From Candidatus Shapirobacteria bacterium (GTDB lineage Bacteria > Patescibacteriota > Microgenomatia > UBA12405): a stretch of 39,391 nt of DNA. Position 1 is the stretch's first letter. Every line of letters begins with the position of its first letter. Below the pieces are notes generated by a model. It had not been told where the DNA came from, made no database searches, and was given only the letters and a program-made list of their open reading frames with translations. Positions 9,378 through 29,929 of the stretch are shown piece by piece. Location of the stretch: the NCBI GenBank assembly GCA_041659325.1, contig JBAZYN010000001.1, positions 197,428 through 236,818 of the forward strand. Direction: 5' to 3'. Both the position numbers and the translations under genes were made by a program.

Positions 9378-9752
9378 GTTACCCCACATGGTGTCCTCCA
9401 CCTTCGGTTACGGAACACCTAAGATTCTGTCTTGCTTTCACATCTTTCTTTAAAGCTTCAGATATCAACCTTTTATAAGCGAATGCTTTTCCAGAACCGC
9501 TTTTCAAATAAAGTTCAAAATCTTTAGCCTCTTGCTCACTTTCAAAAGATCCATACCAAACTAATTTCCATGGAATATGCGGTTTTGTTGAAAATACATT
9601 TCCTCTGTTGTGTAATTCAAATCTGTTCCTCAGGTCTGAGGTGTATCCATAGTAGAAAATATGTGATTTTGAACTTAACAATATGTAGGAATAAAACATT
9701 CCTCAGTATAACCATTCTGAAGCTTTAGCGAAAGATGGGTTACCCCACATGG
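9378..9752 (-). mobile_element. Putative tRNA-Gln-associated GIY-YIG mini-element
   Basis: 14-nt direct repeat GTTACCCCACATGG at 9378-9391 and 9739-9752 (tRNA 3' end); 22-nt inverted repeats at 9441-9462 and 9716-9737 (20/22 identical). Confidence 0.6.
9379..9699 (-). CDS. GIY-YIG nuclease family protein
   Basis: YSYIL...YYGYT..L..R...HN, PWKLV and E..LKSG motifs; C-terminal tail is read through repeat DNA. Confidence 0.9.
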   Translation of the reverse strand: MFYSYILLSSKSHIFYYGYTSDLRNRFELHNRGNVFSTKPHIPWKLVWYGSFESEQEAKDFELYLKSGSGKAFAYKRLISEALKKDVKARQNLRCSVTEGGGHHVG

Positions 9753-9810
9753 ATTCGAACCACAATTACTACGTTCAGAGCGTAGTGTCCTACCATTAGA
9801 CGATGGGGTA
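9740..9810 (-). tRNA. tRNA-Gln(CTG)
   Basis: Acceptor TACCCCA/TGGGGTA, anticodon arm CTACG-CTCTGAA-CGTAG, T-loop GGTTCGAATCC; TGaTAGAAT promoter 15 nt upstream. Confidence 0.97.
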
Positions 9811-29532: not shown

Positions 29533-29607
29533 TGGTGACCCTACGGGGAATCGAACCCCGGTTATTTGGATGAGAACCAAATGTCCTAACCGCTAGACGA
29601 TAGGGCC
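29533..29607 (-). tRNA. tRNA-Glu(CTC)
   Basis: Acceptor GGCCCTA/TAGGGTC, anticodon arm TTTGG-TTCTCAT-CCAAA, T-loop GGTTCGATTCC, encoded CCA. Confidence 0.97.
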
Positions 29608-29849
29608 TTACTATGTATTAAATTTTCAATAGCCTTTCTGCTTTTCCACGACTTAATTATTTTTTCTCTCTTTCGAGCCAAAGAAAGGCTTGAAAACTTC
29701 TCAAAGTATATCAAATTCCAAGGCAATTTTAACTTCGTATATCTGGATCTTCCGGCATTATGATAATTTAGTCTTTGATATATCTCAGACGTTGACCCCA
29801 CATAATAAGAATTATCCCTCAATGAAGCTAGAATATAAGTGTAATACAT
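29586..29849 (-). CDS. GIY-YIG nuclease family protein overlapping the tRNA-Glu 5' end
   Basis: YTYIL...YYVGST....RL..HN, PW.LIY and RE..IKS motifs; the last 22 nt of the ORF are tRNA sequence. Confidence 0.9.
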   Translation of the reverse strand: MYYTYILASLRDNSYYVGSTSEIYQRLNYHNAGRSRYTKLKLPWNLIYFEKFSSLSLARKREKIIKSWKSRKAIENLIHSKALSSSG

Positions 29850-29857
29850 AACTTACT

Positions 29858-29929
29858 CTAACCGCTAGTCCCGATCCTTCGGATCGAGGATGCTCGGTCC
29901 CTTATATTCAGACCGGCAACGATAGGGCC
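29858..29929 (-). repeat. Interrupted duplicate of the tRNA-Glu 5' 22 nt
   Basis: GGCCCTATCGT (29929-29919), a 50-nt insert of two hairpins (29918-29869), then CTAGCGGTTAG (29868-29858). Confidence 0.8.

Follow-up and report, generated by a model that had tools for sequence, protein, structure and literature searches.

We describe a small DNA cassette behind the tRNA-Gln(CTG) gene of an ultra-small Candidatus Shapirobacteria bacterium, found in a 39,391-nucleotide stretch of contig JBAZYN010000001.1 (assembly GCA_041659325.1) that we analysed as a whole and refer to as the window. The cassette consists of one GIY-YIG nuclease gene of about 100 amino acids together with three copies of one imperfect-hairpin motif, and it is probably a minimal selfish DNA element that docks on the 3' ends of tRNA genes. 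Two observations, both read from the comparison of genomes, support this interpretation. Firstly, the same cassette was shown to stand behind at least ten tRNA species in many classes of the candidate phyla radiation (CPR), always in the orientation of the tRNA. Secondly, gain and loss of the cassette were shown at orthologous sites, where a repeat of positions 61-74 of the local tRNA keeps the tRNA intact.

A first-pass annotation, made from the letters of the window only, had read the locus as a mobile nuclease gene marked by a target duplication and by inverted repeats. It had proposed to compare the tRNA-Gln loci of relatives, to count the copies of the 22-nt inverted repeat and to compare the C-terminal length of homologues, and all three comparisons support its central reading. 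The cassette is apparently an undescribed, widespread variant of nuclease-plus-hairpin cassettes; full-text literature searches did not find small GIY-YIG cassettes docked on tRNA ends described.

The tRNA site in the window and in related genomes

The genome (four contigs, 41-44% GC, 46 tRNAs) possesses, according to the genome-wide tRNA list, a single CTG isoacceptor of tRNA-Gln, and it is this gene that bears the cassette (Table 1). The proposed direct repeat of the tRNA 3' end is exact: the forward-strand 14-mer GTTACCCCACATGG was returned by the repeat finder at 9378-9391 and 9739-9752 with 100% identity, the second copy falling inside the tRNA from C61 to C74, and these are the only two occurrences in the whole 1.12-Mb genome. 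Written as CCATGTGGGGTAAC, it comprises the 3' strand of the T-stem (C61-G65), the 3' strand of the acceptor stem, the discriminator and one further base. By our estimate, (751^2/2)/4^14, about 0.001 exact 14-mer repeats would be expected by chance in the 751-nt region. The 22-nt inverted repeat that had been placed around the nuclease core was likewise recovered, with 91% complementarity between 9441-9462 and 9716-9737. Direct and inverted repeats both exceed chance by far. The 5' arm of the inverted repeat begins 1 nt past the left copy of the direct repeat, and its 3' arm lies some 50 nt inside the cassette end, in a subterminal position. The cassette and one repeat copy together form a unit of 361 bp.

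To judge occupancy, 25 tRNA-Gln(CTG) loci of relatives were compared, many of them with the same hydrolase gene of the metallo-beta-lactamase (MBL) fold upstream. Most sites are empty: about 20 of the relatives' loci lack the cassette, with the syntenic MBL hydrolase gene present. In the case of genome G014, the tRNA is 100% identical to that of the window and is followed at once by the flank AGTTTTTGC..., the cassette being absent; this flank starts with AG, as does the one past the right repeat in the window. Genome G004 is filled, with the same cassette at tRNA-Gln(CTG) (TCATCTTTCGTTAAAGCTTCAGAATG..., cut by the contig end), and in three further genomes unrelated GIY-YIG cassettes border this tRNA, on one side or on both. 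A reciprocal pattern was seen in genome G003, where the Gln site is empty and tRNA-Ser(GCT) bears a cassette whose protein is 76% identical, whose inverted repeat is the same and which repeats 13 nt from the end of the Ser tRNA; the tRNA-Ser(GCT) of genome G000 is empty. Altogether, presence and absence of the cassette are polymorphic at a fixed site between related genomes.

For the window itself, the predicted empty junction is TTCGAATCCATGTGGGGTAAC/AGATACGATAC, a circle or tandem junction would read ...GGTGGAGGACACCATGTGGGGTAAC/CCATCTTTCGCTAAAG, and CATCTTTCGCTAAAG is the cassette sequence that new insertions would join to other tRNA ends. Two metagenome scans, one with the empty junction and one with a junction common to the filled and the empty allele, gave no match, the filled allele included, and are uninformative, the species not being represented. 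Looked up by exact protein sequence, the neighbouring MBL hydrolase had no match and the nuclease had one, an identical 1974-nt Logan contig (SRR18595301), which starts 9 nt inside the tRNA and is equally uninformative.

Related nuclease genes occupy comparable positions elsewhere. A protein search of the genome identified four paralogues, all adjoining co-oriented tRNAs: two are downstream of tRNA-Pro(GGG) and tRNA-Gln(CTG), two upstream of tRNA-Glu(CTC), at 29533-29849 of the window, and tRNA-Asn(GTT). Each of them has a copy of the adjacent tRNA end beyond the far side of its open reading frame (ORF). When 40 related genomes were taken in, such genes were present in 28 of 41 genomes, with up to 10 per genome, and a tRNA lay within 300 nt at 23 of 33 fetched loci, co-oriented in every one and mostly accompanied by a tRNA-end copy.

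The lineage of the window cassette itself was surveyed by scanning one genome per species, which yielded 80 loci with 56-86% amino acid identity. Their hosts include Shapiro-, Sacchari-, Moran-, Komeili-, Jorgensen-, Portnoy-, Woese-, Levy-, Berkel-, Curtiss-, Roizman- and Yanofskybacteria, among others. In 48 of the 71 evaluable cassettes the 5' arm abuts the 3' end of a tRNA (Gln 21, Asn 11, Ser 10, Gly 4, Tyr 1, Met 1), and all 48 are co-oriented with it. A far-side repeat of at least 10 nt was detected in 38 of these 48, its commonest length being 14 nt and its start lying 14 nt before the arm, at C61. This repeat follows the local tRNA allele. It reads CCATGTGGGGTAAC in the window, CCATGCGGGGTAAC in locus L074 and CCATGCAGGGCAAC in locus L073, the alleles being ...ATGTGGGG..., ...ATGCGGGG... 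and ...ATGCAGGG..., respectively. The protein tree implies at least 16 changes of tRNA identity among the 48 tips, compared with 20-27 when labels are shuffled. Horizontal spread is indicated because the cassette protein is 56-86% identical across CPR classes, whereas the neighbouring housekeeping MBL protein is 46-60% identical within a family.

Several individual loci deserve description. The closest relative (L072:1400-1830, 86% amino acid identity) has no whole tRNA beside its cassette; a decayed end resembling that of tRNA-Gln (GTTCGAATTTGTACGTACAGCCTTAACC) forms its left flank, and its right copy is CCATGTGAGTTAAC, so either the cassette moved with tRNA fragments or the tRNA eroded. At L064 (G004:C38:10800-12800, minus strand) a tRNA-Ser(GGA) has a cassette on its 5' side, another on its 3' side, and then a remnant of the inverted-repeat lineage that is truncated at its 5' end and finishes in a tRNA-Ser-like end; upstream lies an array of CTGCCCCGC...GCGGGGC hairpins. 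This locus looks like serial insertion at one tRNA. At L141:1790-1850 a second, different 5' arm (CATCCTTCGCTAAAGCTACGGAGTGG) directly follows the right repeat, with no nuclease gene behind it, and a newer cassette appears to have pushed an older one downstream.

A second, unrelated GIY-YIG cassette (34% amino acid identity) occupies 29533-29929 of the window on the 5' side of tRNA-Glu(CTC). Here tRNA positions 1-22 recur upstream in a copy that a 50-nt GC-rich double hairpin divides 11/11, and a comparable 11/12 split occurs at tRNA-Asn (C3:70619-70941) and in the relatives L020 and L024. Two extra small GIY-YIG genes of 91 and 97 amino acids, detected by Pfam only, are located at C1:41100-41321 (plus strand), with no tRNA nearby, and at C1:568858-569073 (minus strand), about 120 nt from a divergent tRNA-Ser(TGA).

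The nuclease and its gene

The product of the only ORF in the cassette belongs to the GIY-YIG family (PF01541), with 52.4 bits against a cut-off of 22.6. The domain covers residues 2-71 and has the conserved positions Y3/Y5, Y16, G18, R26, H30 and E62, of which Y16, G18, R26, H30 and E62 are invariant across 38 sequences. It is the sole Pfam domain; the tail is a single helix with a disordered end, and a separate DNA-binding domain of the type found in Seg and I-TevI enzymes is absent from these 106 amino acids. Searches of NCBIfam and PHROGs with the nuclease gave no match, and the PDB sequence search added nothing. In the AlphaFold model (pLDDT 86.8) the top fold matches are GIY-YIG proteins, the nearest being UPF0213 (1zg2), HIGLE and Slx1, with I-TevI and UvrC ranking lower. 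UPF0213, HIGLE and Slx1 are structure-specific nucleases. As judged from the predicted fold, the cassette nuclease is a member of the single-domain, Slx1/UPF0213-like branch.

Homologues are of similar size, with a median length of 98.5 amino acids over 80 of them and 94 in a protein of the L074 type. Of 45 loci, 32 have their stop codon within the terminal hairpin, its usual place, 10 have it before the hairpin and 3 in the repeat. The suspicion that the native stop of the window copy had been lost, and that its ORF runs through the hairpin into the tRNA copy, is borne out by this comparison. The nearest relatives, L074 and L073, finish ...RCSETK* at a TGA in the hairpin; that stop is lost in the window copy and in L072, which both run on to a tRNA-derived TAA, formed in the window by GGGGTAAC. 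Consequently the window ORF extends 8 codons beyond the usual end. The basic tail of the protein is coded by the hairpin region, its final 8 residues being read-through into the tRNA copy, and the 3' arm TCTGAAGCTTTAAAGAAAGATG codes for the conserved C-terminal helix S-E-A-L-K-K-D.

Concerning expression, transcription via the tRNA promoter is probable because a scan of the minus strand returned no consensus promoter; the nuclease is probably expressed by read-through from that promoter or as a leaderless mRNA. The spacer ahead of the start codon holds a -10-like TATACT 5 nt upstream of the ATG and has no Shine-Dalgarno sequence at a usable distance. The Rfam search over the region matched the tRNA alone. 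The sense strand of the cassette is the lagging-strand template, a relation that is confounded with gene orientation.

Table 1. Parts of the tRNA-Gln(CTG) locus and its cassette, in window positions
Feature	Position	Strand	Remark
tRNA-Gln(CTG), whole, docking site	9738..9810	-	ARAGORN; Rfam tRNA 59.5 bits
14-nt direct repeat CCATGTGGGGTAAC, left copy	9739..9752	-	inside the working tRNA
Motif copy 1, 5' arm of the inverted repeat, CATCTTTCGCTAAAGCTTCAGA	9716..9737	-	left end of the cassette
16-nt spacer ATGGTTATACTGAGGA ahead of the ATG	9700..9715	-	
GIY-YIG nuclease ORF, 106 amino acids	9379..9699	-	Pfam GIY-YIG, E = 6.6e-14
Motif copy 2, 3' arm of the inverted repeat, TCTGAAGCTTTAAAGAAAGATG	9441..9462	-	within the 3' part of the ORF
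Motif copy 3, terminal hairpin GGTGTTCC-GTAACCGAAGGTG-GAGGACACC	9390..9419	-	30 nt
14-nt direct repeat, right copy	9378..9391	-	followed by a flank beginning AG, like empty sites
Extra DNA relative to empty tRNA-Gln(CTG) sites, 347 bp	9392..9738		judged against the empty loci L035, L039 and others

Within the lineage, ORFs are intact in 80 of 81 cases, and the median dN/dS of 0.18 shows that the nuclease gene is under purifying selection. Such constraint would also be expected if the nuclease were a domesticated host protein, for instance one that controls incoming single-stranded DNA in the manner of Ssn. Its gene would then be a fixed part of the cell's own gene set that simply uses the tRNA promoter, and its repeat and hairpins would be regulatory sites or the fossils of an ancient insertion. 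Ssn in Neisseria does act at the host level, in transformation; the hairpin motif is not dispersed in the present genome, and movement was not observed. Even so, we regard domestication as unlikely. The orthologous site is empty in most relatives, with Gln and Ser sites occupied reciprocally, and the target changed at least 16 times in the tree. Identity of the protein remains at 70% or more across CPR classes, in contrast to 46-60% for the MBL neighbour within one family. Perfect 14-nt repeats match each local tRNA, and truncated remnants and stacked copies exist.

The hairpin motif in its three copies

Although the 22-nt inverted repeat is not dispersed in this genome, where its arms are the sole copies at up to two mismatches, it is conserved and covarying in more than 60 homologous cassettes of other genomes, and in this sense the proposed copy count favours a mobile cassette. 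Each arm was located independently against a fixed consensus, resulting in 64 distinct arm pairs. Pairing holds in 83% of cells, compared with 77% in shuffles, and 13 of 25 pairs are altered in both partners (150 cells). Switches from CTAAAG/CTTTAG to CCAAGG/CCTTGG, from CTAC/GTAG to CTTC/GAAG and from ATCT/AGAT to ATCC/GGAT are typical. The covariation score of 0.252 exceeds that of the shuffles (0.145 +/- 0.007; reached by 0 of 500) and of slid-register controls (at most 0.135), although it does not prove pairing, since two sites under one co-evolving protein, or gene conversion, could not be separated from it.

A third copy of the motif stands between the 3' arm and the right repeat, with the consensus GGT(A/G)nTCCGAAG, a variable part, and CG(T/A)AGGA(T/C)A followed by CC. 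In the window it folds as GGTGT.TCC...GGA.ACACC, with an outer stem of 7 bp and one bulge. The stem covaries across relatives: one pair is A-T in 22, G-C in 7 and C-G in 4 cases, another C-G in 25 and A-T in 9. We consider the hairpin real because it is conserved and covarying in relatives, not because of its stability, which does not exceed that of shuffled sequence; the idea of an unusually stable structure was rejected on these grounds (-5.2 kcal/mol against -4.1 +/- 1.8 for shuffled sequence, z = -0.6). Its sequence has no second occurrence in the 1.12-Mb genome. The possibility that its 3' half was taken from the local T-loop was also rejected, as it is identical beside different T-loops.

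This element corresponds to a 32-nt hairpin of the first-pass annotation, where it was thought to split the duplicated tRNA segment. The hairpin as such stands, being the conserved right end of the cassette; the splitting does not, as in not one of the 39 other cassettes do the 5 nt of the local tRNA precede the hairpin. GAATC, the 5-nt outer match for which chance had been allowed, is present in the sequence, cassette-borne and outside the target duplication. As part of the cassette, AGAATC is found again in L086, L127, L083 and L072, where it encodes Arg-Ile, and L127 has it though its own tRNA reads GAGTC, which identifies GAATC as cassette-borne.

C61 and C62 of the right repeat copy take part in the outer two base pairs of the hairpin. 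In one cassette, at a tRNA-Met (L123, 1770-1810), the repeat begins after a further 3 nt (ACCCCCGCAAC), and AC of the target, paired with GT, closes the stem in place of CC with GG. This single case suggests that target bases complete the terminal hairpin.

Other variations of the motif were noted. A solo arm (CATCCTTCGCCAAGGCTTCGGAATGG) lies outside the window at C2:137593-137617, in a repeat-rich intergenic stretch with neither nuclease gene nor tRNA nearby; it matches a consensus variant of the lineage exactly and is a remnant or else a hairpin that spread on its own. At three different tRNAs (L079, L081 and L105) the 5' arm is broken after AAAGCT by one palindromic insert of about 40 nt (ATCCGTCGCTACTACGTAGCTATGGAATAGCG...), which is a small nested element. 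The 5' arm unit is present in 3-4 tandem copies at L123:1384-1500, the terminal hairpin with 10 nt is duplicated at L136:1790-1860, and a 31-nt repeat occurs three times ahead of the arm at L091:1330-1460.

Each motif copy is able to fold on itself with G.A mismatches and resembles the hairpin sites of Ssn enzymes. When the whole 446-nt unit was folded as single-stranded DNA, the long-range pairing of the arms was kept in the minimum-energy and centroid structures (z = -3.6, DNA parameters). The same folds would accommodate an inverted repeat that works at the level of RNA, in which the 5' untranslated region pairs with the end of the coding region, closes the mRNA and governs translation, stability or separation from the tRNA precursor, with no part in DNA recognition. 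That compensatory changes maintain the pairing, and that tRNA and ORF are probably one transcript, agrees with such a role. As a substitute for a DNA recognition site, however, we find it very unlikely: the third motif copy lies outside that pairing, yet is conserved and internally covarying, the Ssn relatives bind their flanking hairpins as DNA, not RNA, and other cassette lineages in the genome leave no room for a 5' arm. An RNA-level role can coexist with the selfish cassette.

Proposed mechanism, known systems and significance

How the selfish cassette would move can be outlined as follows. The motif copies may serve as the nuclease's own recognition sites, in the way that NTS/SRM hairpins do for Ssn enzymes. 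The nuclease, transcribed from the tRNA promoter, would break the region of the T-arm and acceptor end of a tRNA gene, probably single-stranded and on the lagging-strand template, and host repair would then install the cassette. Two routes can be envisaged for this last step. In the first, a 14-nt staggered break is filled in and leaves a true target-site duplication, which would fit the constant geometry at every tRNA type. In the second, the cassette would bring one copy of the final 9-14 nt of the tRNA and recombine through this segment, either as in the homing of fungal mobile ORFs or as Campbell-like integration; this would fit hybrid repeats (L146, see below) and the fungal precedent.

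A more far-reaching version, which we put forward tentatively and hold to be possible though not likely, is a new class of prokaryotic insertion sequence. Here, a bare GIY-YIG nuclease of about 100 amino acids would read single-strand hairpins closed by GG/CC, both its own terminal hairpin and look-alike tRNA T-arms, and would cut at a fixed distance 3', after position 74. The unit of cassette plus tRNA positions 61-74 would be cut out and pasted behind another tRNA, whose bases would complete the hairpin as at L123. The cassette does resemble a transposon in its inverted repeats and its target-derived direct repeat, most often of 14 nt; its sole ORF product is a GIY-YIG nuclease, and a DDE, HUH, serine-recombinase or tyrosine-recombinase transposase is absent.

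The selfish-cassette interpretation faces several difficulties. No movement was observed, mobility being read from genome comparison. GIY-YIG enzymes hydrolyse DNA and do not rejoin ends, therefore insertion must rely on host functions. The published SRM pattern matched no motif copy and is not enriched in the genome (5 matches, against 1-8 in shuffles), individual hairpins are thermodynamically not unusual, and the covariation of the arms is open to the other causes named above. The Pfam search adds two small GIY-YIG genes to the genome that are not docked on co-oriented tRNAs. Among the lineage cassettes, 23 of 71 have no detected abutting tRNA; about 6 of them appear to be cut by a contig end, the rest stand beside fragments resembling tRNA 3' ends without a whole tRNA, and Rfam found nothing upstream of cassettes where ARAGORN finds no tRNA. 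Lastly, 10 of 48 loci have a right repeat copy that is unlike the left, though both are of one tRNA type, which would fit age or carry-over; in L146 the left copy is CCCGTCTCCCGCTCC and the right CCCCTATCCCGCTCC, the latter being the allele of the tRNAs of sister cassettes.

Among known systems, the closest resemblance is to the Ssn enzymes of the conserved-domain family cd10448, which are 94-amino-acid single-domain GIY-YIG proteins that bind flanking hairpins and cut nearby single-stranded DNA (Chenal et al. 2025, PMC11893778). Their authors likened the NTS-ssnA-NTS layout to an insertion sequence (PMC11893778). By layout and protein size the cassette can be called Ssn-like: both have a single-domain GIY-YIG protein of about 94-100 amino acids without DNA-binding domain (106 here, homologue median 98.5), a gene with an imperfect hairpin motif on either side, in the cassette a candidate recognition site of the nuclease, and a similar spacing of Tyr/Tyr/Glu (Y5/Y16/E62 here, Y6/Y17/E64 in Ssn). 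Unlike Ssn, the cassette occupies a fixed position at tRNA genes with a 14-nt duplication, tRNA being unmentioned in PMC11893778, and its hairpins fall outside the published SRM pattern and are not dispersed in the genome. The PDB holds no Ssn structure, the nearest match being UPF0213.

SegB, a homing endonuclease of T-even phages, is similarly encoded by a free-standing GIY-YIG gene beside tRNA genes; we take it to be a larger, multi-domain phage enzyme acting on double-stranded DNA. Unlike SegB, the cassette nuclease has a fold nearer to Slx1/UPF0213 than to I-TevI and lacks a PHROG match, and neither tRNA-end duplication nor flanking hairpins are described for SegB. SegB cuts tRNA genes at RAWTSGAAC, which we infer to be the T-loop consensus, and association with many tRNA isotypes is widespread (PMC13096335; Brok-Volchanskaya 2008 cited there).

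Mobile ORFs of fungal mitochondria (Allomyces atp6; Glomus atp6, atp9, cox2 and nad3) carry a replacement gene end (PMC3630166). Like them, the cassette places an endonuclease ORF near the 3' end of an essential gene, which is kept whole by a duplicated end with the displaced copy downstream. The fungal elements differ in that they target protein genes, have duplicated ends of hundreds of bases that are visibly foreign, and encode LAGLIDADG or larger GIY-YIG proteins without hairpin repeats.

With the 'peel and paste' elements IS200/IS605 and their HUH TnpA, the cassette shares very small size, a strict target, subterminal hairpins, presumably read as single-stranded DNA in its case too, and a connection with the lagging-strand template. 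Target duplication is not a feature of IS200/IS605, and a GIY-YIG enzyme forms no covalent intermediate for rejoining; an HUH transposase is absent here. The comparison with IS200/IS605 was also made by the authors of the Ssn study (PMC11893778).

Integrase-mediated tRNA islands (attL/attR) likewise insert at the 3' part of a tRNA and restore it by a direct repeat, and a duplicated tRNA 3' end is their classic mark. That the locus is an integrase att leftover, or a chance local duplication of a tRNA end unrelated to the nuclease gene, is nevertheless hardly credible, as the repeats are 361 bp apart with no integrase in or next to the interval, the whole element being 347 bp with one 106-amino-acid GIY-YIG ORF, and the 14-nt geometry recurs with the cassette at dozens of tRNAs, far beyond the chance estimate of about 0.001; an att remnant was thus rejected.

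If true, the selfish cassette would be among the smallest autonomous mobile elements known, with about 350 bp and one protein of about 100 amino acids. A nuclease without DNA-binding domain or joining activity would home to a universal, essential target, and the target would survive. The Ssn-like hairpin nucleases, a recently defined group, would thereby gain a biological role and, in the ends of tRNA genes, a natural target. Matched pairs of nuclease and hairpin with mapped covariation would furthermore be candidates for single-strand DNA tools. In the case of CPR bacteria, it would account for the many small GIY-YIG genes beside tRNAs in their genomes and explain stray tRNA-end fragments that confuse annotation.

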